From contig CM082594.2 of assembly GCA_040954595.2 (NCBI GenBank), positions 6,085,962-6,149,961 on the forward strand: a stretch of DNA of 64,000 nt, written 5' to 3'. Source of the stretch: Balanoglossus misakiensis. Lineage: Eukaryota > Animalia > Hemichordata. A model generated the notes under the pieces. It ran no database searches. It had not been told where the DNA came from and saw only the letters and a list, made by a program, of their open reading frames with translations. Shown here piece after piece: positions 6,543-44,307 of the stretch (positions are counted from its first letter, which is position 1; the number at the start of each line of letters is the position of its first letter). The translations under genes were made by a program, and so were the position numbers.

Positions 6543-6543
<1 letters not shown>

Positions 6544-6573
<30 letters not shown>

Positions 6574-7646: not shown

Positions 7647-7713
7647 TTAGTCTCAGTTACCCAGACCCCTCTGCTTCTTCCGTTGGCAGAGGGGTCTGGG
7701 TAACCGAGACTAA
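7647..7713. mobile_element. Miniature hairpin (MITE-like) insertion
   Basis: 28-bp inverted arms TTAGTCTCAGTTACCCAGACCCCTCTGC (7647-7674) and GCAGAGGGGTCTGGGTAACCGAGACTAA (7686-7713) with 1 mismatch and an 11-nt loop. The ends are consistent with a TA or TTA/TAA target duplication. Confidence 0.75.
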
Positions 7714-8405: not shown

Positions 8406-8411
8406 ACTTAC
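8406..8411 (-). other. 5' splice donor of exon A (GTAAGT)
   Basis: Plus strand ACTTAC at 8406-8411 reads GTAAGT on minus, immediately after the conserved IMPKSR. Confidence 0.9.
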
Positions 8412-9228
8412 TTCGGGATTTGGGCATGATTTTCTCTAGCAGGATATTCCTGAAGCTGTATTCCCGTTGTTCCTTCGATAGGTGCTCGTTGAACGTCTGA
8501 TCTTGATTGTCTTCCGGGTACTTGAGCTTCAGAGACGGGTCCGCGGCCCGGGCCTGTTCGATGGCCCTCAAGAACTCGGCTTTGAAGAAGGAACACTCCC
8601 GGAAGGGAACGCCGCCGCGCTGCTCGTTCTTGCGCATGATGGCGATCGTTCCGTAGTTGAAGTACATCAGCAGGCTGGTCATGGCCTCCGCGGCCTTGCT
8701 GTGGACGCCCTGCACCCGGGTCAGCATCTTGTACTCGGTCTCCTTGTTGGCGAAGGAGCGGCCGCCGGCGCCGGCCGTCAGCACGGGGATGTTCCAGTGG
8801 CTGGCCACGCGGATGACCGGCGCGGCGGCGTAGGAGCAGGGCGGGCCGAAGAAGGCGTCAATGTTGATGTCGTTGATGTCGTTGATGAGATCGACCACCT
8901 GCCGCATGGTGACGAACGAATAGCACTGGGTATCCTCCACCTGCATGGTGATATTGCTGTTCGGCAGCAAATCCTGGTCGAGGTTGACCTTGTCGATGGC
9001 GATTTGCAGACTTGGTCCCACCATCTCCAGACGGTAAGGGAACATGCTGACCAAGCCGTACCAGCGCTCGCTGTCGCTGGCCGGCAGAAGAGCGCCGACG
9101 CGAAGGTTCAAGACCTGGTCCTCATCCACGTAAAACGCGTTCGCGTTGCACAGTAAGTTCGCTAACACTAACAAGGGTATGCCGTTAGACCTCGTGGACA
9201 CAAGGGTAAACATGCTGAATAGATACAT
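8412..9228 (-). CDS. First coding exon 'A' of a natriuretic peptide receptor-like / receptor guanylyl cyclase (signal peptide + N-terminal ANF_receptor ligand-binding region); gene continues beyond the window
   Basis: ATG at 9228 followed by a hydrophobic signal-like segment (IPLLVLANLLCNANA). Family motifs: PYRLEMVGP-IAI-KVN-LLP, D-x-x-C, DAFFGPPCSYAAAPVIRVASHWNIPVLTAGA, EYKMLTR, RECSFF. Strong GC3 bias. The exon ends CCC AAA TCC CGA A|GTAAGT (intron starts at 8411, phase 1), matching the exon-1 boundary of vertebrate NPR1 (MPRKGR|V). The ORF-track tail SKFLCSS… is intron read-through. Confidence 0.93.
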
Positions 9229-9739
9229 CCTATCGTACCTTCATGTACGGTTAGTAGAGTGTTGTTCTCTCACTGTATTGCTGAGTCAAAGCACTTCTGC
9301 CAAATACATAATACATGTACATACATTATCTGCGGCGGAAAAGCGACCGTCAGCGGTCGTCACTCCACGGAGAGCATGGCACAGAAATTTCTTCTCGTCA
9401 CAGTAACAATGGCATGGTCTGTTATTCACTGCAGTTTTTTTCTGATTCAAGGGGTTAAGTGTCCATCATCCGTGACAGGCCCGCAACGCATTGCTTCGTG
9501 TACACGCACCCCGTTAAGTTTTATCGCTAAGGCAAACGACAACCTACTTGCGAAGAAGGCGCATGTGCAGTTGCGGTTGCCAATCGCGATCGTCCCCACT
9601 TGGAACCTGGATCATTCCACTGGGCTGGCGAGCTGGAGGTGTAGTGACCCGACTCTGCTGTCGTGACGGATTCGCGGCGTTTCAGTCATTTGTGCAAAAG
9701 CACCACGCGCAGTAGTCGATGATAGATCACACTCGGAAA

Positions 9740-9800
9740 GCAGTCATGGCTGACCTGAAGCGCGACAGGGCATTATGTATATACATACGCCCTGGACGCT
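9740..9800 (-). promoter_or_regulatory. Candidate core promoter for exon A
   Basis: Palindromic TATGTATATACATA (9774-9787, contains TATATA) lies about 30 nt upstream of an Inr-like TCAGCC on the minus strand, at the edge of a CpG-rich stretch about 550 bp upstream of the ATG. Motif-based only. Confidence 0.3.
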
Positions 9801-12800
9801 TTCAAAATAAAAGTGGACTAAAAACAGAAAATGTTTTATGTCCGGCGTTCGGACAACGGACGAAGATTTCTTTCTTCAATTTTTTTATTCTGTCTGGAAT
9901 TTAATTGAACCTGTCGATATCTTCTCGACTAACGGATATGGCATGGTGATATTACGGACATGTTTATAAGGCGAATCCAAATAATTTGCCAATTTAACGC
10001 CGTTTTCAACTTTTATGCCACAATTTACACCCACCGCCCTAACCAAGTCTCTGATAGCAACATAACGCCTTCTGCACGCCATCTTCTCAGCTGGTAACAG
10101 TCGTCCTGCTTCGACCATGATTGCAAAATTATAAGAGCCGGCACAGTTAAACCATTTTTTTAAACTAGGCAAATAAAATTACCACGAGAAGTCACCTTAA
10201 TTGACATAGTCAAATATGCACAGCAGAATAAAAAGAACCTGTAATGTAATTTGCTTCGGTTCAATGGATGCGGGGAGTAAATTTAAAGATTTTTTTTCTT
10301 AATTCCGGTGTGATGTTTACTTTGCTGATTACTGTATTTCATATCACAGTTGAAATCACGTGATTTGGTGAGGATCGCGGCGGCTGCGCGCGCAATGTGC
10401 CACGAGCATCGCCATACTCAAATGTTGCTTTAAATTTGGTATTGCAAATGGCTACACCTCTTGTAAACTACGGGCGGGCAAACGAACTAAATCGAGCTTC
10501 CAACAAAGCGGAAATGGGAACAAAAGAGAACTGAAGAAGAAACCATGCCGTTTAGCAAACATTGCTTCGGGCAAAGTCTGGCTTGTAAAGAAATCCGTGT
10601 CTGATAACTGAACATGAATAGTTCATATATGTCGCATGATTAGTTGATCTTCGGATACTCATCAACGTTGACATTTGGACAATTGCGTTTTCCAAGACAA
10701 GCAGATGGTTTTGCAGGCGACAATCTCAGCTTACAGTATCTATTTCCCTCTTGTCTTTTCCCCTCGAATGAACCTCACTGAGATTTACTTATAAATATGC
10801 GATGAATCTGGTGTATGCGATTTAAAAAAAAACGTGTGGGATGGCGCATTCTGACCAGTTATACAAACGTATGGAATTTTTACATCTGCATCGACAAAGG
10901 ACACTGACGACAAAATCAGATTTCAATTCGGTAATTCAATCAGCATGTCTGTAGATGTATCCCCTGATCACCGCTATTGACGCGATGAAAGAAAGGAGAG
11001 AATTAATCTATGTACCTATAGTTTGAATTCGAATTCAGCTGAACGTTTACTGAACATTCGTGCGCTGGCTTTCCTCCCTCTGGGTGTGTGTATAGAAATG
11101 CAAGCGGGTGATGGCTCGAAGCGAGGATACGTGGATTCTTCTTAGGGGATTACACCGTGTAATCTTAGCTTTATCGCGGCCACGTTAACAAACACGCAAG
11201 AGTTCTTCAATTTCCTTTCTGTTTAATCCGGGGACTGGGTGAAAAATCGCTCCGAACGACAGCTGGCCGTTTTGTTCAGTTTCGTGGTTACGGCGATCAG
11301 GACTGAAATGGGCGATACGCGGTCGGCAGAATTGACATCCTCTAGCACGCTGACGTAAATTGCATCCATTTCGAACACCTGTAATCTCATCGAATCGATT
11401 CAGGAACACAAAAAAGGTTGTCACCGAGAGTGTCCCTGCTAAATAAAGATACACCACACTACTCGACCGATACTTATCGTGACCGCAGCAAGAGTCATTC
11501 GAGCGCTGTACATGTGTACCAAAATTCTAAACTTTCAAAGCACAGTCTTTTTGAAAAAATCACATTTTCTAGTACTAAACATATCTATTCTGTATAAGTT
11601 TTGATGCATGCCTCACAGTTTAATATCTTTCGAAATTAGCCAAAAACAACAACTTGTCCGTGTATTAATTACAAAGAACAACGACTTATAAATCTCTATC
11701 GGCTCTCACTTTTGTGCAAAATGACACATGACTTAATTCAGATGTGCAGGCTAGGCATGTCATTGGGAACTGCGAGTAACACCAAAAGTTGTATCTATCG
11801 TGCCGTGATGTAATTACAGCGACGAGCGTGAACGGCCTAACTTTCTCGCCAGTACATTAAGTTATATGGCGGGGAGATGCGACAAAAGTCTGGGAATAAT
11901 ATCGAGGAGGTGCATTCAAATGATAATTGGGTGAACTCGTAATCCCATCTTTAATTTGATTCTTGCCGAATCGATAGTGCTTCACTCCCGAGTTTTTTAT
12001 TCCCTCGTTACGTCCACCATTTCATTAGTATAGGAAGCGCCAAATCCCGCTGTGAAATCGAAGGTCTCGCGTGCGTAGCCGGTGCTGTGGTTTTTATGAA
12101 GAGTTTATGGACGGTTTGCCGGATATTAACGCGAGACCCGGTGTGCGCTTTCCGGTTCCGCCGCCGCACTCGCCTTTAATGGCGCAGAGTTTCTGGCTCT
12201 CCCTGCTGCCACCCCGCGTCGGATGGAGTTGAAAAGAGGCTGGCATAAATAACGGTTTAATACCCAAGGCTTTCGTATTATATAAATTTTACTACCTTTT
12301 TTAATTGAAATAATTCCCAAAAGTTTACAGTGTCCCCTTTCTGTTCTTATAGTCGTTATAACGACCGCCGCGAGAACACAGATATGATGATTCTGGAGAG
12401 GGGAATTCGGCGGCGACAAGAGGGACCTTGACATGCAGACGAACTATTGATGTAAGCATTGTAGTCAGGCGGACCGAGCAGAGAGATTGCGGTTTTACAT
12501 GAATAAGGAAAACAGTCCTCGTGTTTACTCACCAAAGCTATTGAACATGTTGATGTAAGGACAACATATGTCGGAAAAATATGCTCGCGTCCAATATTTT
12601 GAGGATATTCGGCATTTTGATGGAAGCGCATATTAGCCTAGTATAAAAAGTATGCAGTTAAAGGGTTTATTGTCCTATCTGTGGGTGCAGTTTCTCCTTA
12701 CATTGAAAAAAACCTGCTCACCAAGCAAACATTAAACAGGCGTAAATGATGAGTGCCGTGTGCGTTGCAGTATAAACGAAGCGGCATATAATCGGAAACA

Positions 12801-14474
12801 TAAACCAGAAAATGAAATAGTGAGTCTAGGTGATAGCACAGGATTAAAACTCAACACTCAAATCACGAACATGCTGTATTTGCGCAAGATGTTTTACGAT
12901 CGTAGTCTAGAAAAAAATATATGTTGGAAACACAAACCACAGAAATGGTACACGTAAGCCAGTATCACCGATTATCGTCCTGCTGTCATGTGACCTCAAA
13001 TTGTCATCTCCAATTTTACACCAAGCAAATATTCCTCAATAACCCATTTTCTGGTAAATCCGATTGGGATATTCTTTGCTTAAATCACCTTGCTCGTATA
13101 TAACTGGCGGATAAAATATGTCTCGCATGTAGTGGGATTGAAAACAAGGACTTGCGCAGAGCAAATACAAAATGGACGTCGACCTTCGGTAAGAAGGACG
13201 CCCTTTGATAAAAACTTTAAATGACAAAGTACACTCTGAAATACTAGGTAAACATAAAGTTCACGTAGACCATTTCAGCCAGCAATAACACTCCTTGACA
13301 ACGACTCGAGGAATGTGCAAAACCCCTATTTTTATTGCACTCCACTGACTTCTCTAATAGAATTGAAATCGTTAACTGGCTGCCCGGCTAATTCGCAAAC
13401 AAATAACGACGTCCCTAAGAGGAATGGTCCTCCTAAATATTGATCTTAGCCAACTTCATTTGGATGTTGCTAGACCAAGTCAGAAATGCCATTGAACGGA
13501 GGTACATGTATGCCGCGCCCGCGTACCCAAAACAACACTGGGCACGATCAAGGCCAGCTGTAGTTCGCGCGGAAGTGATTAAGTTAAATGTCGAAATAGC
13601 TGTTCTTGTGCAGTGATCACAACAACGTTTATCCCCCTTCCGTTCCCTCCTGTCATTTCCCCTCCCCTTCCTTCTCCCTGTCCTCAATGTCAATTCCATT
13701 ATCACAAATCATTGGTATAATGCTACAGTTTATAACGGTGGAGCTGCACCTATCAATAAACGACAGGGCACGAGAGGTGAATGTCTCTGGGCGAGGAAAA
13801 CAAATGAATGCTCGTATGGTGATCGTTCTCTTGGGACTGACTGCATATGCAATGCGACACAGATCTAGTGACAGGCACGAGATAACATTTGAAAACTTTT
13901 TCGAGTTTGAAATAAAATCCGACAGAAATCCCCCCTTACTGAGACAGACAGACAGTCATTTCAAGACCAAACAGCGGACCACTCGCCCAGTCTTCACTAC
14001 TCGTATGAATATCCTTGTTCTTGAAAACGCCGAGTTGGCAGAAACATTTAAATTCAATTCTAGGGTTGTTTCTTGTTACAAGGAAAAGTAAATGCGCACC
14101 TCTGGGCAAGAACTAGCTCTGCTGTGTCCCCTGAGCCCACCGCTGAAAATTGGGTTCATTTCAAAGACTTAATCTCATAAATCATTACGTGTACATAAAC
14201 TCCGCTGTACCAGCAATACTGTCAAACGCATCTGTTTGGGCCCTGGCCTGCCCTAAGCTATAATATGCAAAAATATACATTTCACATATCTATAAATTTC
14301 TTCGTTTTACATTTCGCGTAGATAATATAGTTTTATGTCCCTTTCAGTTGCCTTTATTTGATTAATGGTTTGGAAATGATTTTATTATCATTTGTAGCTG
14401 ATCGAGTTTGTGTATTTTATACTGGCGCCATTTTTGCTGGAGATGTTTGCTGCTCACGACGAAAAAATAACGAT

Positions 14475-14488
14475 GGTGGTGGTGGTGG

Positions 14489-14546
<58 letters not shown>
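14475..14546. repeat. Microsatellite (GGT)5(GAT)19
   Basis: Seen directly in the sequence. Confidence 0.97.
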
Positions 14547-14547
<1 letters not shown>

Positions 14548-17500
14548 TAATTATTGTCAAGGCAACTCACTGCGTTAGGTCACGGACTGGGGTTAGGTTG
14601 ATTCAATTCAAAGTTAACATGTTTCCATCAACACTTAAATAACGGTGCGCAATCATTAGAATAACTGGAATTTCCTTCTATTGTCCATGGAACAATACAA
14701 TACACACACACCAGGGATAGCATTACCCTGCGTGAACTGAAAGAACAATAAGCTCCCACGTCCTCTACTGTTCACGCAGTTGTCGGACTCCTTGTGACGT
14801 CAATTTTTTAGACCGAGTGATAAAAAGGATTGTATAAGTATCAGAAAACACCTGCACGATCAGTCTTCATAATGATCAAACGAGGGACTTGTCGATGAAT
14901 AAAGACGTCAAAAGCAGACTGGTTTCCAGAGTCTGCAAGTATCAACAGGGCTGCACAAATGCTTTGGATGACGGCCACGATTCCTTTAATGTTTGCTTTC
15001 AACAAGAGAGTTTTTGAGTGCCTGCAAACCGGTGGCCGACACAAAGTGTACTGGCACGCTCAGACAAGCTACGAGGTCAAAAGTCTGGGCCGTCTTTGCA
15101 GGGAACTCGGTAGGCATCTTGTACCGCGCACCACGTCAAACCGAGAATCGTGCTCTGAATCCCAACTCCCACGTGAAGTTGGTGGGTATCATTGCGTGTG
15201 ATCAAATTCTGAAATGGTGTACATGTACTGTTGCTTTTACTGTTGGCAGTGCGTCAGGATGATGACACGGAGGAGTCTTTAAACTCTTTCGCAATCTATC
15301 AGAATGACTTGCCGGGCATGATTTCATATTCTCCCCACTTAAGTGCAGAAATGATGCACTCTCACGATTTCCAATGAAGACGATACACATTCTCAAATAA
15401 ACCTGGTAAAAGATGTCTCTCTGTCTGTCAAGCATACATGTACTGATGCGTTGAACCGTTCTAAAAGAACCGCAATCCTTATTTCATCAGCAAAAAATCA
15501 TTAACCTTTCAGACTATCCATTCGTAGTCACACAGCGAACGCTGACATTGACAGCGATACCAAAGGTCAGCAGCACTTTTTAAATACAATTAAAAAAAAA
15601 CCAGAACATTCTTATGCCAAGGAATTATTTTCCTGATACCGTCAATAATGACCTACCAGAGTGGTTCGATATTATTGAATATTTTCAAAGAGTCTCCGTA
15701 CACTAAATAATTATTTGCCCATGATTCTGACCATGAGATACACAAGCTTTGATTAAAGCACAGTTTACAATGATCATATATACATGACTGTATTTGAAAG
15801 CCTTTTGCTTATTTTAACTTAAATGGCAGAAGTGTCTCTCCATGCAAAGAATGGTCTTGAGAACGATAACGATACTGTGTCTCTTCAAGTGCACTCAGTA
15901 AAGTTACATATCACATCAAAAAGTAATTCAGTTCAGTTTACTCTTTTCTAGCAAAACTGGCTGTTCATTTAGTGTGTACCTACTTACGGACATTGTTATT
16001 TCAATTTTTCATTCATTCACATTCATAAGCTTATTGTTGGGCAACCTTTTCATATATCATTGCGGGCATTATTAAATCTATTTAATAATCTAAGCGGCTT
16101 AGTTACTCGCGACAAATAATCACACCATGATGGCCGGTTAATCTCGAGGCTTTTTTTTCGACATCCCCATCATTCACAAAAAAGTCACGAGTAATGTTCC
16201 CGTTATTTGGCGGCGTTAATGTGACGTCATGCGGCAGAGACGTGTCCCCGAGTGTCCGTGTTATTGAATCTGTTACCCTATTAGGCGTATATCACACGGG
16301 TAAATACATGGTTACTGGGATTCCGTGTTTGATTACCTTGTTACATCCTGAAAGGCATTGAAAATAGCCCGGGGGATTCTGCTGTCCACAGATATATCAA
16401 TCAAGTGGCCAGTGCGCTTGTCACATATTGAGAAGAACCCAAACGACCTCTTAAGTAAATACATCATTTCGTTTAAGCAATACCGCTCACTTCAGCAACA
16501 GACTTTCAACAGCATTAAAAAATAAATGTTTTCCCGGATAGATGTAAAAGATCCAATTCAATATGGACTGCACTATACTTCTTAATAATATTTTCTTTTA
16601 AAACCTGAACCTTCCATGATCGACAACTGGTGAACGTTTATGGAAAAGGCGGGAACTCAAAACGTCGTGCGTCTGTACACAATTATCGTTCTTCTGGCGG
16701 TTATCAAAGATGGCAGCCACCCGAATTACGTCAGCCATTGCAACCTATAAATATATAATAACCACGATTTCGAAATTGCGCCAAAACCTACTCGTCGTTT
16801 CGAGTCTCTGTATTAAGGTGCCATCTTCGTTAGATAGTAAAAGAATTCATGAAAATTCAATAAATTGAAATACTGTTATGTCAGAAGATAACATTGCACA
16901 CTTCCCGTGGTTATTATTACATCCAACTAATACGATTCTATATAATAAATACCAGAGTTGATTTTTTGCTTTTCATTTCATCTCCTCGGGCGTCCTCTAA
17001 TAAAGTAATATTAGTAACCTTGCAAAAGTTTCATTAATTAGAAAGGGCCATGAGGAAACTTGATTAATTACTAATACGACATTTCAGATTCTGTTTCTGG
17101 CATTTACAAGGTTTCATGTCCGTTTTAGAATTATTAGACAAAATCACCATGATTTAAAAGAATAGGCAATAACAAAAATCACTTAACTATGTTTGTCTTT
17201 AAGTACGATATGATATATTCGGATACAGTAACAAAATCCAAGTGATACCTTACAGATGATGTAGTGTTCGGGGAAATGCACTAAAGAGATAAAAGTATGA
17301 AAAAAGTTTGCGTATATTTGCCCATTACAGAGCGCTGATCATACAAGTATTACGCTTACAAAATAAATAGCTTTCCGAAGAAAGATTTAAAGATGGTTTA
17401 CGATCTCACTTTCAAACATGCAGCTGCAAAAGGCTTGAAATATAGATCTTGTACATACATGTAAAAATGTTTTATGGTTTCCGTAAAGCGTGCACGTATT

Positions 17501-20500: not shown

Positions 20501-23500
20501 GAAAGTGAGCGGGTCCGGGACAGACATAGTTAGCATTTAAGCTTAAGGAGAAAGTGAATGTGAAAATTAACTTTTAAGGGGAGCACATGGCATTTCATCA
20601 AAACGGAAATAGTCCCCCAGAAGCGCTGTATCATACATTCTTCACTCTATATCTTTATTTGTCAGAAAATTCAATTCTTCACTTTTGGATTTCGTCAATA
20701 GATAACGTCTTGAAATCTAATTTTGTCCGCGTCGAAGTGACTACATACCCCGGCCCCGGGGAGGAGAACACCCGGTGGTTAGTCATTGGCGTGTGCGCGG
20801 TTTGTAAATCACCACGGCGACAACGCCATCCCAAAAAGTGACAATTTGTGCCGAGGGGCATAGATTTATATCTCTCTGTGGCTTCACGGTAGCCTGGAGC
20901 AGACATGACGCTGGCGACACGAGGGATACCTAACACGATATTTAAGACTAATGTGTTATATTTCTCTGGGAAATGTAATATTAGCACAGCTGTCGACATG
21001 CATGTGTGATGCAAGTCGCCACCCGTTATTTTTCCAACTATATGGGAGCAGTGACTCAATTTCTTAACGGAAATATTTTCTGAAATTCTTCTCTGGCAAA
21101 GATTTACGATCTTTGGAAACAGACTAAAAATCGCTAATCAGTAACTGGTTTAACATGATGGCACCTCGCATTCTTGGTACATACTCAGGGCGTCTACTAA
21201 GAATACACATCTGCAATTTTGTACAGATATTACCACATAAATTCAACATTACACCTCGTTTATAAACAGGGTGGTGATATCTTTCAGTGGTTTGTAGTTA
21301 CCGAGAGCGCTTTACACGATACGTCAGACAAACACAGCTGGTCAAATGATGTGTGACGGAGCTCCTTCACTGAAGCCCATCGAAAATAGCAGTTCGATAA
21401 ACTACATATGCCTCATTTGCAGGCAAGGAGATTAATCTGAAAAACGACTGCGGTTTACATCTACGACGGTGTACACTTCTGGCGAAGGCATTCAGGCTAA
21501 AGACTCTTGATGTAACTGCTCATCGCGGTTAATCTAACTCTCCCGGACAATAGATGATTTTCTGCTCGTTGCGAGATCTCGCGAGACTATGTTAATTACG
21601 GCTTGCTAGCCAAGTATTACAAGTCAAGATTTGTAAGAAACCAGAATAGGTGTGGCGTTTAACAAAAAATGTGACTATTGTGCCATTTAACGTAATGGGG
21701 CGTGTGTTGTTTGTCTTGTGTCACACGAGAATGTCCTGTCATATAAACTGCCTAACCACGCTTAGATCTCGCAGGGTCTCGTGAGGGTTCGGAAAACGGT
21801 CTATTTGGAAACATCGCCATTCCTCAGCTGGCAACATCAGAATGCGAAGATTCATTGCTAGGTTTCTCATATTCAGTGACAATGCCAATACAATACGGTG
21901 ACATTAAGCTAAAGAGCTGACGGGAATTATTAACAAAGGTTAGATAACGACGACCTTGTATGTGAATTTACGAGCAAATTACGATCCCAACCGCTGTTTA
22001 TCATGAGTGTATATTTTATTCAAGAAACATACGGCGATTCTGAATACAGGACTCTAATCATAGGGCATCAAAGGTGACCATGGCAACGTGGCACCAGAGA
22101 AGCCCAAGGCTATTCCAAGCCGGTTTTCTACAAAGAACGGTATATGGAAACAAAATGATGAAAAAAATGGTGACTAAACGTTTACGGATGTATATATTAC
22201 AAGAGTGATCTTCCGTGAGTCTAGCACAACAATCAATATTAAGTAAAGAACACATCGCTAATGTTATCAAAAGAGGGGAAAAATAATTACACCTTTACTG
22301 CTACTAAGGCAAAAATAAAGATACAGACATGTACCAACTGCGCCCCAGTAATGTCCACATTAGCACAATTGCCTCCAACGAAGGCCAAAGGTCAAGTCAA
22401 CACGATGGGGGGGATTAAAGTCTTATGAATATCGGTGGCAATATATCAAGTGTTGCTATCTTTATGAGATAGCGAATATCTAAAATCAGCCTGGATCTAT
22501 CGGTATCGATGACACTTAATACCAGCCTAATCCACACGAATTTAGTTTCACACAATCAGTGATATTATTGTTAAAGCACTACTCGATCTTGAGGAGAATG
22601 TGTGGCGTCGCAGTTAAGATGCCATATTTTTGCTGTCTGGTATGCAAGCTGACCGTTTGATATTTATTCAGTATTGTACCATATTTAAGTATGTCTTAAC
22701 TATCCTTTTACTTAAATTATTATATTTTTGTATGATTTTTTTCTTTTAACATCGATATTACATACACATATGTATTAAGTATTATGAATGTAATATATTG
22801 TATCAGACGCATTTCACACCGTAGTTATCGGTGTCCGATAGCGCTGGCATTTATTTGGCCACCAAAAAAACATCGGGCGTCAAAGTTCATGTCAGGAAAT
22901 TCCCATGACGACTATCAGTCTGGTCAGAAGTCGTCAAAATCATCACACAGAACGAGAGATAAGATAATGCGACGCGGCGCACACTTCGCGGATTCGGGCG
23001 TCCCATCCCCTGTAACGCTGCGCGAGTCGGATTAGAACGAGTTTCCACCGTATTACACACTGATTAAAACCCATCCGAGCATAAAATAGTCCGAGATAGA
23101 GGCGACGCGTGACTGAAAACTAGGAAACCGAATTTCGGCGACAATGTGAGCCCCCCATCACTGATGTGCGCGTAGAGAGGAAGCCGTTTGGTTGATTAAA
23201 CTTCACGAGGCAAGGACTGTCAGTTTTCATTAGCAGTGCCTCGGAGACACTGCTCGACCAGATAATTGAAATAAGTGAAGTCCGCCTAGCCAATTTCTTT
23301 CCTCGCACCCGCGTTCAGAACTTTACAGTTTGCAAATAGTAAAAAAGAAGAAATACACCCAAATGTACGTTTTATATTGATAATAGTCTGCGTTTATGGA
23401 GTATAACCATATGGTGATTCAAGCTATAGTTCTGTTCGGTGCCGGCTACTGTAAATATGAGAACTACACTAAGGACCTTGGCGCATCAAAATATCATCGA

Positions 23501-32500: not shown

Positions 32501-35500
32501 ACGATAAACAGAATTCGAGCGACTGTGTTATCAAACAAAATATTTACCGGCCACAAATTTCAGCAACCGTCATTAAGGGCTCTGCTCTTATCTGTTTAAA
32601 CAAAAATACTCGCTGTCGTGATGGACTTTTGATCATTTTGCGCTCATTTCGTTCCTGCAAGCCTGGTATATTCTCAGCGGGACCCCCTCTAAGGTGATCA
32701 AGGGAAACTTGATTCAGTGAGCGTTTCTGTTGCTCACACTCCACGGAATCTCCAATTACCCCTTTACTTCCGAGAACACATTCAACAGTAATTTGGTTTA
32801 TTTGCCAAGAGTTAGTCGGTCCACAAACACGGGCAAAGTGGTTAACTTTGACAGCCACGGGAAGACATGATTTTTCAATAATTTGACCATTTTGCTCAAT
32901 TTATCTGCTTGTGTACACCACCTAAGCAAATTAGCAAGTGGCTATGGATACCAGTCTTTCACGTGAGTTAGAACTGCCGACCGTTTCCATGGTAATTCGT
33001 TTAAGAGTAGACAACTGTAGGTTTAAGCAATCTTCTTGCTTGCTCGGGCATTTGAATCGCGTTTGGCTGTACGCATGTGCAGCTTAATAAAATGTGCGTA
33101 AAATATTGCATGTATTACTCGTTACAGGAAAATGCTCTTGGTTGTGGACAACGGCTTGACGTCAGCATAATATGTATTTTATGTAAAATAGTTGACGTAA
33201 TAGGCCGAGAATGCTACATTTTTACATGATTGCATGAATTGTATTTTTGTTTTGTGTAAAAAGCCCTTAACTACAATCGTTACATTTCCAAAGAAACCAG
33301 TCGCCATGACATTCTCAAGAAAACATAAATTACGTAAACCAGTCTCACTCCCGACTCGCGTTCACATTTTAAACCTCCCTAAACGTCATTTAATCATATC
33401 TTTGTCTGACAGTTTCTTCAACATGAATGATAGAATTCTTCATAAAACGTCCCTTCCATCAGAGGCACCATAAACGGCAACACTTCCTCTGAAACAGATG
33501 TTCAATTGTATTTCATTTTTTGCAATATTCAATATTCATCTCGAAATTAATGGCTTTAATTCGTCACTGACGAGACTCCAGGGCATCAATCTGAAATTAT
33601 GGAAGTGCGTCACGAGATCAAAAAGTACTCATTTGCGTTTGGTCTGGATGCCTGTGAAGTGGTTGTGTCATTACGGTTAGACCGCGGGTTCGCGTGACGT
33701 TAACTTTTTGAGCGTCTGCTGTTTACTTACGTAATGATCTTGTTGAAATTCCTCGATGATCATGGTCACAGAGGGGAGACGTTCAGTTTCCTTAGAAACA
33801 CAAAGTGGAAAAATTGGAGACGCTACTTGAAGATGAAGTGGCGGGGAACGAATGCTGAGTAATTGCTCTCCGCACGAGTGGTACCGGACTCTTAATTTGC
33901 CGCATTTGTGCAAACTGCCCCCGTTGACAGGGACGACCAGGAGAATGACATACGTTCAAATCTGCGCACCGTGAAAGAAAGACGGCGTGAAGCGACGAAC
34001 CGTGCCGCCCTCAGACAGGAAATTATCCCAAGACTGCACATATACTCATGATATGCCCTCATTGCCATTGTATTCACGGACATTTTCAGTGAAACGCTTT
34101 AAACATCTATCGCGGCTGTCTGGAAAAAAAGTACTAGCCGTTGCCTAGACTGAAGACAAAGTGCACTCAACTTCACGCAAACCGTTTCCACTTGTTGAGA
34201 CTTTGAATCGAATTCGTCTTCACTGAAGTCGCTAGAGAGTTCATTCAATCATTTTTCAAACACTCTCCAGCGATACTTCCCCCGTTTTACACAAATAAAC
34301 CATGAATTCAAACAAATAGTGTTGACATTATACAGTTTGCGATTTGTTACGATAGCTTTCGTTATGTTTATTTTGAAGATGAATTATAAACTTTCATTAC
34401 AGCTATTTTGAGACAGTGCTGTCTCTATTTATAATGAACACAGTGTAACTAAAAATTCCTAAAACGCTTTCTTGTCGAGCGTACTGGACTGCTGTATTCA
34501 CCGACTTTGTATCGAGCATTTTAGTGACAACATTTGGAAGCGCTGACGTCCAAATTACAGTGATGTAAACAGGGCATGCGTACGGGCAGCTGTGTTTACA
34601 GTACTTTGTTTCCTGGTAGATTCTAGATCCCACAATGCATCACAGTTTCAGTGCCTTTGCGAGAGGCAGATAAACGCAAGTATGTTGTGCAACAGTGGTT
34701 TACATTATGTGATGCGTGGTCAGCTCGAACTGGCGGGCGATGTATTACGTAGTTTTTAAGAGCGACCTGGTTCTGCCGACATGTTAGAGTCGATATTACT
34801 AGAGATAAATTATCAAATGCGCGCAACTTGATATACAATATCTTTGAACGGATGCTCCGGAAAATAATAGACTGCGATATAAATAATGCAGTCAGTTCAC
34901 AAAAGGTAACATTGATGGTGCATGTAGAGTGACATTTCAGGTCGTTACATGCAGGTATCGCCTTACAGACTGCATTCAGTATGTTTTCATTTTTAATGAC
35001 AACGACTTTTCGACTGAGTGACTGACTGTCCGTGGCATTCTGCGTGCAATATGGCCATCTTCTGACAACAATTGAAGGGCTTGTACACAAACGTTACAAT
35101 GATAACGGATGTCAAGTGCGTCTGAGAGGTCACGTATCATTCATAGGCCTACCTGTGAACGGGGAAGCTACCAAAGATGGCTCAGGGGTATGACATCACA
35201 CCATCACCAACCCCATCATTTACAATCGACGCTTCGCGATTTGTCATATCTCCTTGACAGACGGTGTGAGTTAACGAACGTTTACCGTAAAGAGGTGACT
35301 CGTCGGGCCACTGTGTGTTTATGAATTATGGCGGCAGCGTATTATACAATTCCGTTTTACCGTAGTTATGAGCTCATTTTCTTTATCGAAGCTCCACAGA
35401 GTATATGCTCGCAACACCCATCCGCTGTTCATCATGTTTATGATTTCCCGGGTGAACCTGAAATAAAATGGCGTGTATACCACACGTGTGGCTTTTACGA

Positions 35501-38500
35501 GAGGAACTGCACAGGGCAGAGTTGCATGTATGCCGCCGAGTGTAAATCTGGAACGGAGCGGGCGGCGATCGAGCTGTAGACTGGCGGTGCCACGCTAAAT
35601 TAATCCCGAATCGGTTTATTTCGCGGCACATCATCACAAGAACCACAAACTAGATGGTCCTTGATGAAGACCATAATCAAATAACCGCGACCTGTGAAGA
35701 CTGGATTTCGCATCGGGTGGGCACGCACGGGAAGCAATCACTTTACGCCGGTCGCTCGTTTCCTTGCGACGCAGCGGCATTTAATTAATTGAGACGCGAT
35801 TAAAGCCGTTTTCAGGGAATCAATCCTCCATGAACTATGGCATGTCGATGGGATTCTTTCATAATGAAAATGTTCGAACAAGAAAACTATATTACATCTA
35901 CGCTACATTTGATTATGAAAAAACGCACCTGTCATATCATCGTGCCTGCTTACCATTTATTATTATCATCATGATGATGATGTCCAAGTTCTATATTCGT
36001 TTTAGGGAGATACGTCAAAAGTGACATCATCGGTTCGAAGAAAAACAATCTGTCGTTCCGATTATCTTTAAAAACGCGTGGCCAGAGGCAAACAATATCA
36101 AATGTTGAAATTTTGTACAGTTGTTCTCCTTTGTAACTCGGAATAGCTGTCTCGCTTCAACCGTGACGCGGTCACATCTGCCGCTAGCCATTTCTAACAG
36201 ACTACTCGAGCAAACTCTCACATAAAGTACGGATTTCGTTTTACTGCTCAAAAGCTCCAAAGCGGATAAGAACGAGTATTGATCGAGCATCCGTGACCCT
36301 AAAGCTTTCAAAGAAAGGATACACCCAACAATGCGATTAATTTACGACACATTATGACCTGTTCTGATATTTTGGACACTGCGCAAGGAAGTGACTATTT
36401 CTGGCGACCTCCCCGCCACTGCAAAGCCTGTGGCATGCGTTCGTGATATTAGAACCATCCGCACACACTCACCGATGGTGATCGTAATTCCTTAACGAAA
36501 CAACTAAAATTGAAATGTCTCATCTGCGACATCTCACTGCATAAAGAGCCGGCCATCTGTACGTCACATGACGGGGATACGGCGATATGGACGTACACAG
36601 CAGACCACCTTAATTGACAACCCGTTCATCGACATCGTGACCTGGGACGACACCTCAACCTTTGAAATACAAACACAACCGTAAAACGGTTTCTCAGACG
36701 AAAACCACGACCCCCTTTTCCATTTGAAATTTCCCATGTTTGTTTGCTTTCCAATAAACGAACTCTGACTCATCCGGAAAAAAGCGTGGTGACTGTAAAA
36801 GATAATACGTATATACATGCCGGTTACTTCAGGACAATTACTATTTTGTTTGTTGATGCAGATTTTTATTGAATGTCTGCATTCTGCTAGCGGAGGAACA
36901 TCGTGAGAATGGACAAGGAGCAATTGTCCTGTTCTTTGTCATGCACTACTATGTCTGCCATGAGTACCCGCATACGTCAGCGTTGCTTCAAGTCAACAAG
37001 GTCCTCTCTAGAGTTGCGAGTAAAGCGTACGTACCTGTCGACCGGGAGAGAGTTTGGTCTTACAAATGGGGCTATACACAAAGGATTGCCGAATTAACAT
37101 GAGAATGCCCGTCCAGGTTCTCAACCACTCATGACCTCCATCTGCTTGTGTGCATTAACGTTTCTTACTACGTCATAAAAAATCAATTTTCATGTACCTG
37201 TGACTGGGTGGTAATGTCGTGTTACTTACAAACGACAAACACGTAACCATTAACGGTTAAAATGTCACTTGGTGATTGTACACCGATGTGAATAGAGCAC
37301 ATGCGCACTCAATCAACACACACCGTTTCTAAATTATAATTCCCGCCCGGGCGATCTCAAGAATACGACCTTTTTGAATAATATTTATCACTATCCTATG
37401 CATTCGCACGATGTTATCAAACGTCTCGATTTATTTTTAATCCCGCGCTAAATTTATACAGTGTTTGCACGGAAAATCTTCCTCGAGTTCGAGAAAAGGT
37501 TTATGAGGTCAACGAATATTTTGATTGGCTGTGTGATGAAAGTTATCTACAGACGTTCGAAATTACATCTTGGGAACTGATAGACGTTGCTTGTGTATAC
37601 TAAACACGGCCTAGCCTTGTGAACTCTGGCCAAGCAATTGAATATCAGTCTACAGAGAAGAAAAGTACCAGTTATATGACCACGGATTTGCTAGTTTTGA
37701 CCTGACGACGCAAGGCTGCGTTTCTTAAGTGATGGTGGGGGGGGGGGAGCTAATTTGGCGTTAACGATCTTGCTTATCTCATCACACTGACCCTTGGAGC
37801 GGTCTGGCCCCCGTCTATAATAGAAGACCCCGGCAGCCTCGGATTTTGTAGGACTAGAAATCCTATAATGATGCAAGTATGATGCGAACGTCGCCCCATT
37901 ACTGCTGCTCTTTGTTAACCCAATTGCCTCCGAGACAACGATGCTGTCCGAGATAAGAACTACACCGAAGAGACGGTGTCATCTGATGCGGGGACCATTG
38001 TGTGCATTTCTAAGCCGAATGCAACCATCAAGCTTGCTATCATCCGCTTCCTGACTCCGACAAACCTAAAGTAGCCGCACCTTCCCACATTATTTGGCTA
38101 ATTTTAGCTGTAATACCGTGTCATTGTGCACAACAAGTGATATCTATGTGCCTGTTTGTTATAACACGCAAAAAAACCTGTGTGCGATCTCACAAATAGC
38201 ACAATACTTAGAAAGTCTGAACGCAGCTTAGTCAGAGAAAACACAAAACGCAATTATGATAAAACTATGAGCTCTTGTATAGAAGCTTTGCAAGTTGTAA
38301 GTAGGCGGATTGACCGCAGGAACACTGGTGAAACGATTTATCGGTGCTTAAAGTCAGGGTAATTTAATAATTGGGGCGCAGTTGCTGTGATAAACAGAGT
38401 GACTCAAGTTCAGCTTCCGACGCATTAATTTACCTGACAGCAGCACAAGCAGTTCTTGTAAATTAGCCTATATCGCCCGAGGTTTCTCAAATCCCACAGG

Positions 38501-38639
38501 AACAACTGTCAGTGCGATCTATTAATTTTGCAGACCATCGTCATTAAAGGTTCATTTTCAAGTGACAAAATCATATCAGATGTTGTTGGCTATATTACTC
38601 GGCGGTGCATTGGAATGCTAGAAGCACACTATTAACTGG

Positions 38640-38740
38640 CACTCCATCCATCAATCCTACCATGCATGCATGCATGTACTGCTGTGTATCTAACCATGCT
38701 TCTATGCAAGCATCCACCCACCCATCCATCCGTCCGTTTT
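38640..38740. repeat. Degenerate (CCAT/GCAT)n tetranucleotide low-complexity tract
   Basis: ccatccatc, catgcatgcatgcatg and ccacccacccatccatccgtcc runs. Confidence 0.6.
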
Positions 38741-39569
38741 AATTATCCACGGACCCTAAACTAAGGTTTAAGAAAGAGTATTTGCAGGGGGAAGACTGGT
38801 GCAATTTACCAGAAATGTATTCTTTGGCTGTCACTAGTACTTTCTAGGGGAAACACTTCATTCAGAAATTGCGGTTGGTCAAAGTTCAACAAAATATTGA
38901 CACATGTACCGTAAGGTGGAGCAGGTCAAACAGGGTGAACAGAAATGTTTTAGGAACAACAAAAGCACTGTACTACGGCGCGTAAAATCAGTGCCGTTGC
39001 TGCTGATGGATCGCTGGGGGGAAACGCCATGTTCTTGGTTGCCATGGCGAACACTCGGCTTGCCCGGTAGCCGGGACACAGACTTGAGTGTTGACGATGT
39101 AATTCTGCGGGTGTCGCCAACAATTAAGACGTTCTGTCAATCCGAAGGACGCAGCAAATGGCAGAGTTTGATCTATAAAATGAAATGCCCTTTGCGACGA
39201 AATTAAATGAGTCCGGTCGAAAATATCCTGATTACAAGTAATGCGTCTGCCTTCAAATGATTAATGCGCATGGGAATATTGTGTGTGTCGGCAATGTTGA
39301 AATCTTTCACCCACAAATTGAGGTTTATGGCTGTCGATCTATAATGCTCGCAATACTAGTACATACACAATACCAGTACGTAATATCTTAAAGGGCAGTC
39401 GTCCGTGGTCTGTAAACAGCGCATTTGGACGTCGAACGCTAAACACGTATTAAAATTACAAAAGCTGAAATGTCGACCTAGATACTTCTGTCGCGCATCG
39501 GTGATTGATCGCGAGCCGTTTCATTTAGAGAATGAGAACGGCGGATTTGCCTGGTTTGAGAAAATTAAT

Positions 39570-39575
39570 ACTTAC
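39570..39575 (-). other. 5' splice donor of exon B (GTAAGT)
   Basis: Plus strand ACTTAC at 39570-39575, immediately after IMPRAR. Confidence 0.9.
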
Positions 39576-40374
39576 TCCGCGCACGTGGCATAATGTGATC
39601 CTTGAGGATACTTCTGAAATTGAAGTCCCTGTCCGTTTTGGACACGTGCTCGTTGAACGTTTGGTAGCGGTCGTCCATCGGGTATTCCATGCCGAGCGTC
39701 GAGTCTTCTTCCCCGGCCCTATCCATTGCCGCCTTCAACTCGGCGTTGAGGAACCAGCACTCGCGGAAGGCGAGCATGTCTCGCTGGTCATCCTTCAGCA
39801 GCGTCGCTATCTTGCCGTACCTGTAGTGCTTCAGCACCTCGACCACAAACTGCGCCGACTTGCGGTGGACGCCCAGCGTCCGCGTCAACATGCTGAATTC
39901 GCTGGCCTTGTTGGAGAACGAGCGAGCGCCGGCGCCCGCTGTAAGGATGGGGATTTTCCAGTGGCTCGCCATCCGAACGACCGGCGCCGCGGCGTAGGTG
40001 CAAGCGGGGCCGAAGATCGCGTCGACCTCGATCTCCTTCACGTTCTTGATGAGTTCCACGGTCTTGATGGTGGAGACATACGAAGAACACTTCGAATCAT
40101 CGTAGTGTATGGTGATGTTGCGACCCGGCAGTAGCGTTGTGTCTGCGTTGACTTTCTCGATGGCTATACCAAGCCCCGGTCCAACCATCTCCAGGCGATA
40201 TGGATACATGTTCACCAGGTTATTCACGTGGCCGCTCATTGTAAGTATCGCACCCAGGTGTATGTTCATCTTATCTCCGTCCTCGTCGCCCAGGTCCACT
40301 GCAACGTCGCTTGGCAGAACGGCAAACACAAGCAGGGCCCTGACAGTGACCTGCATGGCGTTCACGCCAAACAT
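39576..40374 (-). CDS. First coding exon 'B' of NPR-like receptor guanylyl cyclase (paralogous extracellular-domain exon)
   Basis: The ORF-track start at 40404 is TTG; the first ATG is at 40374 and a second, with gccATG context, is at 40356. Signal-like VRALLVFAVL. Motifs DAIFGPACTYAAAPVVRMASHWKIPILTAGA, EFSMLTR, RECWF. Ends CCA CGT GCG CGG A|GTAAGT (intron starts at 39575, phase 1). About 50% identical to exon A by hand alignment. Confidence 0.93.
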
Positions 40375-40659
40375 AGTAAGCCGTATCCTAGTATCGTATA
40401 CCAATTTGAGATCTCACCTTGCGCTATGCTTGCTACGGCAGTAGGGCAATCTTCGCAGTGGCGTACGTCGCTTGGTAATGTGCTTGTGTACGAACCTATA
40501 GACGGACCGACACTCACGACGAGGAAGTCGTACTGATCACAATATCAATGGCTCCGCGTTGATTCAACACAGGCACTCTAAGTACCCGAGGTTCAATGTC
40601 CCCACTTCACTCACTAAGTATAACAGGCTAACAACTAAATACAAGCCGCACCGCGTAGC

Positions 40660-40960
40660 ATACACATTTAAACTTTTATCACTCGCGCAATGACAACTGC
40701 GGGGGAGTGCGCATGTGCGGCGGGGCTTCGCCAACAGGCGGCCCTTTGCAATGTCAAGCAAGGTATGCAGCCTCCCGGGGATGCGGGGCGAGAAAGTCGG
40801 ACAGCTTTTTGGATCGGACTGTTATTGGAGTCGGGTGGAACTCCGACCCATTTCCTTGGCGTTTCCCCCCCCCCCTGGATTAAAGACGCGTGGATTGCGA
40901 TAGATGGAGCACGTACGGCTGTCAAACGCTGAGTGAAAAAAAACGCCCGAAGCGGGATCA
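40660..40960 (-). promoter_or_regulatory. Candidate GC-rich promoter for exon B
   Basis: CpG-rich block upstream of exon B with an NRF1-like TGCGCATGTGCG (about 40708-40719), GC-box-like GGCGGGG/GCGGGGCG elements and an AT-rich GATAAAAGTTTAAA (minus strand) on its downstream side. Confidence 0.4.
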
Positions 40961-41258
40961 CACAAAAATCCGCAAAAAAGATAAAAGGTAAGTTGGTTGC
41001 TCCACGTATTAGATGTTGTACCTGAGGATTTTTTAAAAATTTCAGTGCATCGCTTTATCTAATGCGAAAATACGACCCTACCTTTTCTAAACGGGACAAA
41101 GTTTTTGCATTTTGTTGTTTTTTTTCTTTTGATGGGCTACTTATTATTATTAATCTGTACTTGGGTATAACATGAGAATACAGCTACAATAGAATTTTTG
41201 GAACTTATAAAACAAGATGGAGTGTTCATGCATGAGTAATTTCCATCTTCCATGAACA

Positions 41259-41313
41259 CATCATCATCATCATCATCATCATCATTATCAGCATCAGCAT
41301 CAACAACAACAAC
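41259..41313. repeat. Microsatellite (CAT)9…(CAA)4 between exons C and B
   Basis: Seen directly in the sequence. Confidence 0.9.
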
Positions 41314-41875
41314 ATTAGTCAGGAAATATGATTTGTGACATGCTTAGTCCTATAGAGATGAGGAAAAGCTTTGTATGTCATTCTACAATAAGTGAAGCAA
41401 GACGAAAATGCAATGATTACTAGTATTGTATATGCCTTCTGCAATAATTCTGTACGCATCAACCATGACATATCGTTGATGATATGTATTGTGTATGTGT
41501 TTTACGGCAATCCTGTGTATCAGATATGACGTATCTTTGATTACAAATATTATTAATAGGTTTAACGATATTACCACGTTAATGTGTATCTTTGATCACA
41601 AGAATTGTGTACATGTATTCATTTTACGGTAATGTTGTGTATCAGCTGTGACATAGCTTTGATTGCAATCATTGTACACGCGTTTTACGACAATGATGTG
41701 TGTCAGCTTTGGGTTACCACTCGTTAGCAACTCAGCTATGTTTATGGCCGTCAATCTTGAAATCCACGCACTTGCATCAGCCGGGTATAATTTTCACGGC
41801 CGACATCCGATCTTTTGGCAGCGTGCAGTGTCGCCTCAAAACCGCGAAATTATTGTATTTCTCGGCCCATCGGCT

Positions 41876-41881
41876 ACTTAC
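41876..41881 (-). other. 5' splice donor of exon C (GTAAGT)
   Basis: Plus strand ACTTAC at 41876-41881, immediately after IMPRAR. Confidence 0.9.
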
Positions 41882-42677
41882 CCCTTGCACGTGGCATGAT
41901 GTGCTCCTTGAGGATATTTTTGAAGTCGTAGTCCCTGTCCTCTTCGGATAAGTGCTCGTTGAATGCTTGGTAACGGTCGTCCATCGGGTACTCCAGGCCC
42001 AGCGAGGGGTCTTCGGCGTTTGCCCTGGTCATCACCGCCGCCAGCTCCGCGTTGAAGAACCAGCACTCCCGGAAGGCGATCTGGTCGACGTCGTCGTCCT
42101 TCAGCAGGGTCGCGATCTTGCCGTAGCCGAAGTGCTTGAGCATCTCCACCACGAACTCGGCCGTTTTCTGGTGGGTGCCCAGCGTCCGCGTCAGCATGCG
42201 GAACTCGTGCTGCTTGTTGGAGAACGGGCGCGCCCCTGCCCCCGCCGTCAGCACGGGGATATCCCAGTGGCTCGCCATGCGGACCACCGGCCCCGCCGTG
42301 TAGGTGCAAGCGGGGCCGAATATCGCGTCCACCTCGATCTCCTTCACGTTCCTGATGAGTTCGACGGTTTTGATGGTGGACACGTACGAGGAACATTTCG
42401 AGTCATCGAAGTGTATGGTGACGTTGCAACTCGGTAGTAAGGCCGGGTCAGCGTTCACTTTCTCCACGGCTATCTCCATGCCCGGTCCGACCATCTCTAA
42501 CCGGTAGGGATACATGTTGACAAGGTTATCTTCGTGGCCACTCATCGTCAGTATGGTACCCAGGTGTATGTTCATTGTCTCCTCGGTTTGGCCGCCCAGA
42601 CGTCGACAGTCAACAAACTTCCTTACACTGTTTTGCAGCATCGAAAAAACTACTAAGTATCGTAAAACAGCCAGCAT
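41882..42677 (-). CDS. First coding exon 'C' of NPR-like receptor guanylyl cyclase (paralogous extracellular-domain exon)
   Basis: The ORF-track start at 42749 is TTG; the first ATG is at 42677 (accATG), followed by signal-like MLAVLRYLVVFSML. Motifs DAIFGPACTYTAGPVVRMASHWDIPVLTAGA, EFRMLTR, RECWFF. Ends CCA CGT GCA AGG G|GTAAGT (intron starts at 41881, phase 1). About 78% identical to exon B over the mature region (about 50 differences in about 231 aa by hand count). Confidence 0.93.
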
Positions 42678-42874
42678 GGTGCTATCAAACCATTCCTGGT
42701 ATCGTAGACCACCAGAAAATAAAGATCTTGCCGATGTCCCGGCATACAATTAGACAAAAAGCGCTGCAGTGACTTTGTTTGAATTCCACCCACTGCAGCC
42801 ACGAACGTTAGCGACACCAAACTCAACAAGCCCGCGATAACAATGGCTCAACATGTTGTTCGAATGAATTATAA

Positions 42875-42935
42875 GTTAAACGTCCCACCTCTCGTATTCG
42901 AGGGCTAATGTTTAAGAGGTTAAACGTCCCACCTC
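42875..42935. repeat. 17-bp direct repeat GTTAAACGTCCCACCTC upstream of exon C
   Basis: Identical copies at 42875-42891 and 42919-42935. A related motif GAGGTTCAATGTCCCCACTTC lies upstream of exon B (40588-40608). Confidence 0.8.
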
Positions 42936-44307
42936 CTTGAACACAGGTTATCAGTTAGACACACGCCACGCAGCTGTGGCTGGCTCTACAGCAAAACTTG
43001 GTCCAGGATAGGCCACCCCTATAACAGGAATCGGTCACCGGCCTGCCCCAAACTTCGGGTCTGCCGATGCGAACGTTGGACTCACTTGAGAAGTGCACAC
43101 CATTATACTTATCCCCCCGACCTTTAAGATGACCGAGTCGCCCAATAAGTCAGGACCCAGTTTTCCTGGGCAAATTTCAGACGGTGTTTTGAATCGAAGT
43201 GTTACCACTGCAGAAACCCCAACTCTCGACCTCTCGCTTGCTGCTTTCCGCATACACGCTCAATCCATCACAAACCACCCCTTTTAATAATCTCCAAGAT
43301 CGTAATGCATTGAACGCACACATTTAACTGTCAAAATCTAACATAACAACACAAAGCAGCCCCGAGTGGAAATACAAGACTGTGCCGCACAATATTGTAA
43401 TACTTTAGTTGGCCACATCCGGGTACCAGAATTTTCCTTCTGTAAACTTGCAACGTAAAAAATTAAAGTGTCACGTTAATTCACTCCGTATGATAACCCG
43501 TTGAAACTCGTTTCGCGGTAGCCGATTGCAACTTCCCTTCTCGAACCAAGAACATGTCACCGAGTCAATATAAGTGGAGTATACAATCATTAATATTAAG
43601 TATTTTCGACATGCGCTTTTTATCCTTTCAGATAAAGAGAAGCTCCTCAGAATAATCATCGAAATGGGCGACCCCCATCAAGTACTTATTATTTCGACTT
43701 GACTTATTTTTTGCAACGATGTGAAAAGTGCATGTTTCCGTCTGCAATTTCATCTAATGGATTACCAACGCTAAGCCACGATTTTGAAAGGTTGTAGACC
43801 CCTTCTTGATCTTTTCAGTCGCCATTTGTATTCGCTCGTCAGAATCCGCTGCACTTTTTGGCAAGTGGCAGCTTTGCAAGAGGTGTAGGTCAAGGGCTGC
43901 ATCGTTTCCATTTTCGACATTGACGTTTACGACAGATATTTAACCCACGAGACGGAAGTGAATGTGTTATTCGCATAGACAACATATTTTGTGCGTTTTA
44001 TGGCAGCCACAAATATTTTATATACCACACTATGACGGAGACCTCGCACGTGTACGTGGGAACCGCATGGGTGATACTTTGATACTTGGTAACGATCTTC
44101 AATGGCCGACAATTTCCACCCCATGATGGCGTCATATACGCAGGTGTGCGTAATTACCCCTGCATGGGGGATTGTCTTTCTTTTTACATGACTCTTTGCT
44201 CTGCCGAAAAGACGAAGCGTGTGGACATGTACATGCATGTGTGTTCTAATCCGAGAATGCACAGACACCAGGCTGTCACATTTGTTGGCTTTCATCTTCG
44301 TTCAGAT

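Follow-up and report, generated by a model that had tools for sequence, protein, structure and literature searches.

Putative alternative first exons for the ligand-binding half of an NPR-type receptor guanylyl cyclase in the hemichordate Balanoglossus misakiensis

Tandem arrays of variable first exons that are spliced to one set of constant exons are described for the clustered protocadherins and for UGT1A, and most known examples are adhesion molecules or detoxifying enzymes. Mammalian NPR genes have a single first coding exon each, and ligand specificity is provided by separate genes. Here we describe three paralogous exons, designated cassettes A, B and C, in a 64,000-nucleotide stretch of the Balanoglossus misakiensis genome (assembly GCA_040954595.2, contig CM082594.2, positions 6,085,962 to 6,149,961 of the forward strand; hereafter, the window). 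One NPR-type receptor guanylyl cyclase gene is likely to use the three as alternative first exons, each with a promoter of its own and all with shared downstream exons. That the cassettes have a constant region in common, whether it is reached through choice of promoter or through splicing, is a still safer conclusion and very likely correct.

A precedent among receptor guanylyl cyclases exists in Caenorhabditis elegans gcy-28. This receptor guanylyl cyclase is called an ANP-receptor orthologue (PMC9249223; PMC3842693). Cloning of its isoforms c and d used a separate forward primer for each and one reverse primer for both, and the two have a common 3′ end (PMC9249223); they are driven by separate promoters, with c expressed broadly and d mainly in the AIA neurons (PMC9249223; PMC3842693). 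The isoforms are also treated in PMC8816384 and PMC4935464, and gcy-28 is counted among the kinases with a functional splice variant (PMC5290486); nothing further on the isoform structure was found in PMC5225109 and PMC12923798. The original prediction had held that the design was not known from receptor guanylyl cyclases, a claim that is contradicted by gcy-28 (PMC9249223) and by the automatic annotations of many invertebrates analyzed below. The precedent limits the surprise of the design itself. Of the gcy-28 isoforms a–d, c and d differ in their 5′ ends, as the receptors of the present array are predicted to do; in B. misakiensis, each cassette is a single exon of about 800 nt in an array spanning 34 kb. 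No gcy-28 protein was among the 120 matches listed in our census of related proteins. We presume that the 5′ ends of gcy-28 are paralogous ectodomain cassettes joined at the same codon as those described here.

The array resembles the clustered protocadherins and UGT1A in having a row of paralogous, probably first exons that begin with an ATG and a putative signal peptide of their own, in its same-phase splice donors and in the constant region that the cassettes appear to share; the half of the protein that determines specificity is predicted to be encoded by the variable exon, as it is in UGT1A. Unlike these systems, it belongs to an unrelated protein family, comprises three to five cassettes rather than tens, and has its junction inside the ectodomain. 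The stochastic, CTCF/cohesin-dependent choice of promoters seen in protocadherins is no part of our proposal. In the three exons, Pfam gave ANF_receptor only and cadherin repeats were not found, so that the likeness is one of design and not of family. Of the vertebrate receptors NPR1 (GC-A), NPR2 (GC-B) and NPR3, structures of NPR-A and NPR-C are matched by the ectodomain predicted for the P. flava relative described below. Searches aimed at the design retrieved no paper describing the array from an open-access collection, which lacks most subscription journals. As a cassette system that spans phyla and provides the ligand-binding half of a hormone receptor, the design is apparently undescribed, although it is implicit in annotations and foreshadowed by gcy-28.

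Cassette structure and orthologues in Ptychodera flava

Each of the three cassettes (Table 1) is 3n+1 nucleotides long, contains no stop codons and ends with a homologous Arg codon plus one base, immediately followed by the donor; in cassette A, the start codon at 9228 is followed by a second ATG at 9213. The original prediction of three intact paralogous exons on one strand (the minus strand), each with its own ATG, and of a common end codon with a phase-1 GTAAGT donor thus holds for A, B and C. The order of transcription is C, B and A, with 30 kb between B and A and an intron of at least 8.4 kb after A. The distance between the end of C and the ATG of B, first put at about 1.5 kb with a microsatellite, measures 1507 nt and contains a CAT repeat (41259–41302); other trinucleotide microsatellites of the window are TGT at 6543–6577 and TGA at 14489–14547. 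The window has a GC content of 42% and contains no N.

All three cassettes match the Pfam family ANF_receptor (PF01094) at 87–92 bits (cut-off 25.4), and their nearest relatives in the PDB are NPR-C and NPR-A. The encoded proteins are 72% identical between B and C and 48% identical between A and either of the two. The best nine-residue mean of the N-terminal hydrophobic stretch, a measure of hydropathy only, is 2.67 in A, 2.73 in B and, lowest of the three, 2.22 in C; the four P. flava N-termini introduced below range from 2.54 to 3.10.

Table 1. Coordinates of the cassettes, splice donors and 5′ flanks in the window
Feature	Position	Strand	Remarks
Cassette A, coding part	8412..9228	−	817 nt (272 codons + 1 base); putative signal peptide and N-terminal part of an NPR-type ectodomain
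Cassette B, coding part	39576..40374	−	799 nt (266 codons + 1 base)
Cassette C, coding part	41882..42677	−	796 nt (265 codons + 1 base); duplicate of B
Splice donor of A	8406..8411	−	GTAAGT, phase 1
Splice donor of B	39570..39575	−	GTAAGT, phase 1
Splice donor of C	41876..41881	−	GTAAGT, phase 1
5′ flank of A	9383..9599	−	Homologous to B flank; putative proximal promoter and 5′ untranslated region
5′ flank of B	40522..40749	−	Homologous to A flank; putative proximal promoter and 5′ untranslated region
5′ flank of C	42834..42975	−	Weakly homologous to A/B flank; lacks the GCACATGCGC/GATAAAA part

The closest full-length relative of the cassettes is the ANP receptor 1-like protein of the hemichordate Ptychodera flava, isoform X2 (P0001), which is 72% identical to both B and C. 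Among longer proteins, searches with A and with B each returned P0001 alone; isoform X1 (P0121), the N-terminus of which is 63% identical to A, was reached through a cluster look-up. The P. flava gene has four RefSeq isoforms, X1–X4 (XP_070536693–696), with N-termini that are 29–55% alike and are followed by a constant part in which 845 of 845 residues are identical. The codon at the junction is the end codon of A, B and C. A tree built from 57 N-termini pairs A with X1, and B and C with X2, each at a support of 100/98 and both within the hemichordate group; a single clade of A, B and C was rejected by the approximately unbiased test (p-AU 6e-59), which was made after the tree had been inspected. 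The tree thus identifies A as the orthologue of the X1 N-terminus and B and C as co-orthologues of the X2 N-terminus. By this phylogeny, the split between A and B/C would predate the divergence of the B. misakiensis lineage from P. flava, and the B/C duplication would be later than, or near, that divergence.

The P. flava isoform set and the array thus agree in their junction, and A-type and B/C-type orthologues, joined in P. flava to an identical constant part, are present in both. The sets differ in that P. flava has X1–X4, whereas the window has two X2-type cassettes and, within its 64 kb, no X3- or X4-type cassette was found. The P. flava orthologue has a transmembrane segment and carries the kinase-homology and cyclase domains (PF07714/PF00069 and PF00211), and its isoform X1 aligns with human NPR1 over residues 62–1096 at 1092 bits. 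A second NPR-like gene on the same P. flava contig (XP_070536699–704; P0014, P0015, P0017 and P0129–P0131), with adjacent accession numbers, combines three N-termini with one constant region that is 63% like that of the first gene. A second array matching this gene may lie near the window.

The cassettes are kept under purifying selection, because the ratio of nonsynonymous to synonymous rates (dN/dS, Nei–Gojobori) ranges from 0.21 to 0.40. It is 0.21–0.23 for B/C (bootstrap 0.13–0.32; dS about 0.7), 0.37–0.40 for A/B and 0.33–0.37 for A/C, with dS of 0.66–1.14 across the pairs, which is probably understated given the GC content of 0.77–0.83 at third codon positions. A value near 1 for B/C had been named beforehand as the mark of orphan duplicates; the value of about 0.2 speaks against such duplicates. 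The donor hexamer is identical at 6 of 6 positions in all three pairs, whereas only 10–19 of the following 54 nt match. The donors have therefore been conserved by selection while the flanking intron diverged.

The search of the window for constant-region exons was negative, both by tblastn with three constant regions (best E 0.66) and by a profile built from 125 proteins and run against 3437 stop-to-stop segments (best E 2.1). At E < 0.01, this profile recovered 23 of 24 held-out pieces of 35 residues and 26 of 42 pieces of 20 residues, including pieces from the start of exon 2. Single constant exons of about 20 codons could thus escape the search; the whole set could not. Within these limits, the searches uphold the earlier statement that no downstream receptor exons were found in the 30 kb separating B from A or in the 8.4 kb after A, and they detected none in the stretch from C to B. 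A fourth cassette was likewise not found in the 64 kb by the cassette profile (next best E 0.76; 7 of 7 spiked control pieces recovered), and nhmmer detected A, B and C and no further copy. Rfam gave no match in the window, and Pfam gave none in its 12 other long open reading frames.

According to the promoter-choice model, each cassette would be transcribed from its own promoter, and its donor would skip any cassettes further downstream and join a single exon 2 located to the left of the window. Judging from the P. flava orthologue, the constant exons would supply the rest of the ectodomain, the transmembrane helix, and the kinase-homology and cyclase domains. The homologous 5′ flanks and the gcy-28 precedent suggest that promoter choice would yield cell-type-specific isoforms. 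One locus would thus produce receptors with different predicted peptide-clamping heads and a common cyclic GMP (cGMP) output, and mixed dimers of co-expressed isoforms could form.

The predicted ligand-binding surface of the cassettes

In the NPR structure, two monomers clamp a single peptide between them; sections 6–7 of the structure paper name 18 residues of the receptor as contacts of ANP or DNP, and these span positions 62–195 (bioRxiv 10.1101/2020.07.09.196394). The cassette junction aligns with mature residues 208|209 of human NPR1, placing all 18 of these named residues within the swapped part. Judging from the vertebrate ANP-receptor structure, the cassette would supply the peptide clamp, and cassettes would be expected to differ in ligand or affinity. 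In a structural model of P0001 (69-row alignment, mean pLDDT 77), the junction lies between a helix (254–262) and a strand (268–272), and the model matches the NPR-C and NPR-A ectodomains only as a whole, with TM scores of 0.87–0.92 to the targets. Since the junction is inside the modeled ectodomain fold, a cassette would need the constant exons to complete it. The original claim that the receptors differ in their ectodomains would accordingly hold for the cassette part; the exon covers about 60% of the ectodomain, and the rest is shared.

Of the 18 contact positions, 14 could be mapped, using anchors set by hand. B and C differ at 4 of the 14 (background 50 of 231) and A and B at 7 of the 14 (background 113 of 231); A and C also differ at 7, while the X3 and X4 types differ from X1 at 8 and 11, respectively. 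By analogy with the vertebrate receptors, it is plausible that different cassettes bind different ligands, more so for A compared with B/C and for the X3 and X4 types, and least for B compared with C.

The exchanged exon is predicted to encode the part of a hormone receptor that binds the peptide, and annotations of several invertebrate phyla show the pattern again under generic isoform numbers. If this reading is correct, receptor diversity at these loci is two to five times higher than is apparent from the number of receptor guanylyl cyclases counted in invertebrate genomes, and ligand searches must cover every cassette and not one isoform per gene. Natural swaps of cassettes on a fixed signaling body would then provide a clean route to ligand specificity and to the origin of natriuretic-peptide signaling.

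Recurrence of the pattern across invertebrates

A census of isoforms covered 170 proteins, and the junction was located in 152 of the 164 with at least 300 residues. Groups were defined by identity over the first 200 constant residues, and all counts are lower bounds, as 120 of the 170 matches were listed. Of the 23 groups so defined, at least 16 combine one constant start with two or more distinct N-termini; they span hemichordates, a starfish, molluscs, a nemertean and a spider. Among hemichordates, there are at least four N-termini for the first P. flava gene, at least three for the second and at least two in Glandiceps. The starfish Acanthaster planci has at least five, Mytilus edulis and M. 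trossulus have at least four each, and M. californianus has at least two. At least two each were found in Mya, Mercenaria, Ostrea, Saccostrea, two Haliotis species, Biomphalaria, Lineus and Argiope. Within such sets, the N-termini are 22–55% alike in most pairs. The isoform sets are automatic annotations with generic names.

When the cassette profile was run on 150 representatives, 133 matched the cassette profile only and 8 contained at least two cassette-like stretches; one of these eight (P0281) is a weak match and probably an unrelated repeat protein. In a gene model of Mytilus coruscus (P0139), two cassettes are chained ahead of the constant start. The full-length proteins P0041 and P0060 are encoded on Logan contigs of 4659 and 4894 nt, in which both protostome cassette types are joined to the constant part; being too short for introns, these contigs are probably spliced transcripts. 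The spider cassette (P0155) falls inside a 16-row protostome class of mollusc and nemertean sequences at 96/97. In tests of a single ancient origin of the arrays, a spider-side duplication was not rejected (p-AU 0.076), nor was a single clade of all echinoderm and hemichordate cassettes (p-AU 0.18).

Two observations count against a universal rule. An amphioxus cluster carries no isoform labels. In Saccoglossus kowalevskii, two of three constant regions (P0003, P0007 and P0011) are joined to different cassette types, which suggests whole-gene duplication instead of, or besides, a cassette array.

Two gene models extend the range of arrangements. P0173 has two tandem cassettes (residues 19–229 and 272–481, 68% alike), the first of which matches residues 2–208 of human NPR1 (E 4e-66) and ends at the same junction. 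The model resembles a duplicated NPR1 first exon of the vertebrate type, and could represent the same design in a vertebrate or two neighboring genes merged by the predictor. P0171, a model of 695 residues without a constant part, chains three cassettes that are 40–49% alike and form their own clade, which points to a further lineage with its own tandem expansion.

A broader and much more tentative hypothesis is that the bilaterian NPR-type guanylyl cyclase was ancestrally a cassette receptor, in which an array of promoter-selected first exons swapped the whole peptide-clamping surface on a single signaling body. Acorn worms, starfish, molluscs, ribbon worms and spiders might have expanded the array anew, and it might survive as the isoforms of nematode gcy-28 and perhaps in some non-mammalian vertebrates (P0173), with a different peptide for each cassette and with mixed dimers widening the repertoire. 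If so, one or two loci would encode an overlooked multi-ligand cGMP hormone system.

Putative promoters and alternative explanations

The A and B flanks share the motif GCACATGCGC about 300 nt upstream and the motif GATAAAA about 40 nt further on; we take the former to be NRF1-like and the latter to be TATA-like. In two of three scoring schemes, the 450-nt regions preceding the ATG of A and B align with each other above 260 background segments. A model made from the A and B flanks alone retrieves the C flank as its best non-self match (E 0.017; next 3.2). Sequence likeness among A, B and C is limited to the exons and the faint flank. It is probable from these comparisons that each cassette was duplicated together with its 5′ flank, and a separate promoter for each cassette is likely. 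The motif count (2 found versus 0.01 expected) was dropped as a test because the pattern had been chosen after being seen. Two more exact GCACATGCGC sites lie far from the cassettes, at 37297–37306 (+) and 57815–57824 (−); no GATAAAA partner and no cassette relic were found at either.

Several observations weigh against the promoter-choice model or its wider reading. The RefSeq isoforms X1–X4 of P. flava are computational models, and a single X2-type N-terminus is recorded there, leaving the B/C pair without a one-to-one match. The constant exons lie outside the window, and splicing in B. misakiensis is extrapolated from the orthologue. In pairwise tests, the B/C and A/C flanks did not rise above background; in the 450 nt before the start codon there are 12 ATGs in A and 4 in C, which could mean introns in the 5′ untranslated region. 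No enrichment of change was found at the 14 mapped ligand-contact positions. In the census, 7 of the 23 groups have one N-terminus only among the matches listed, and the three constant regions of S. kowalevskii are different, 84–86% alike in the two pairs compared. The original prediction of variable first exons is supported, being backed by the joining of P. flava X1 and X2 to one 845-residue constant region, by dN/dS well below 1, by the conserved donors and by the homologous 5′ flanks; its splicing component is inferred for this genome.

The strongest alternative, improbable in our estimate, retains the shared constant region and treats the cassettes as mutually exclusive internal exons in the manner of Dscam, all preceded by a single non-coding first exon with its promoter further upstream. 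Just ahead of the ATG, an 18-nt stretch common to B and C (40403–40386 and 42711–42694) includes YAG with a G after it, a possible acceptor, and the several upstream ATGs in A and C also fit this arrangement. Against it, the homology of the A and B flanks extends 300–350 nt upstream and includes the presumed TATA-like GATAAAA, and in B no ATG occurs between GATAAAA and the start codon, or anywhere in the final 286 nt before it. The promoters of gcy-28.c and gcy-28.d, as described in PMC9249223, are separate.

Marginally less probable is that only one or two cassettes reach the constant exons, with B or C being silent or read through its donor into a short secreted fragment. A stop codon lies 2–22 codons past each donor, exon-1 read-through products are recorded in a sea cucumber relative (P0159 and P0160), just one X2-type cassette is recorded for P. 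flava, and C has the weakest 5′ flank and, by hydropathy, the weakest signal peptide. These points are set against B/C reading frames that stay open at a dS of about 0.7 with dN/dS of about 0.2, and against donors that were kept while the intron diverged. In addition, no AATAAA or ATTAAA occurs in the 1500 nt after the donors of A and C, the first one after B is 833 nt away, and a cassette that ends inside a lobe of the modeled fold would give an incomplete fragment.

It is very unlikely that the cassettes belong to different genes in tandem, nested or interleaved, with a set of downstream exons for each beyond the window. Saccoglossus does have several distinct constant regions, and the second P. 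flava gene, 63% alike in its constant part, lies on the same contig as the first. Against this, the window searches found no constant exons in the C–B and B–A intervals or after A; to reach a set of their own, transcripts from B and C would need to bypass A; and the P. flava orthologues of A and B/C have one constant region in common. An assembly artefact in which uncollapsed haplotypes are set in tandem is hardly credible: high heterozygosity is frequent in marine invertebrate genomes, but B and C pass the haplotype check proposed with the original prediction, differing at 28% of residues with dS of about 0.7, runs of N are absent, likeness is confined to the exons and the faint flank, and the split between A and B/C is common to P. 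flava.

Three further features of the window were observed. The ratio of observed to expected CpG is about 1 over most of the array (1–48000) and lower, often 0.4–0.8, upstream of C (48000–60000), hinting at low methylation across the cassette region. In the intron after A, at 7647–7713, two arms of 28 nt form an almost perfect hairpin (−29.8 kcal/mol as DNA, z −10); this is probably a non-autonomous DNA transposon of small size. A 51-nt stretch with a TCTCGCGA-like core is present in two copies that are 78% alike (21549–21599 and 48494–48544), possibly a dispersed repeat or a regulatory motif.

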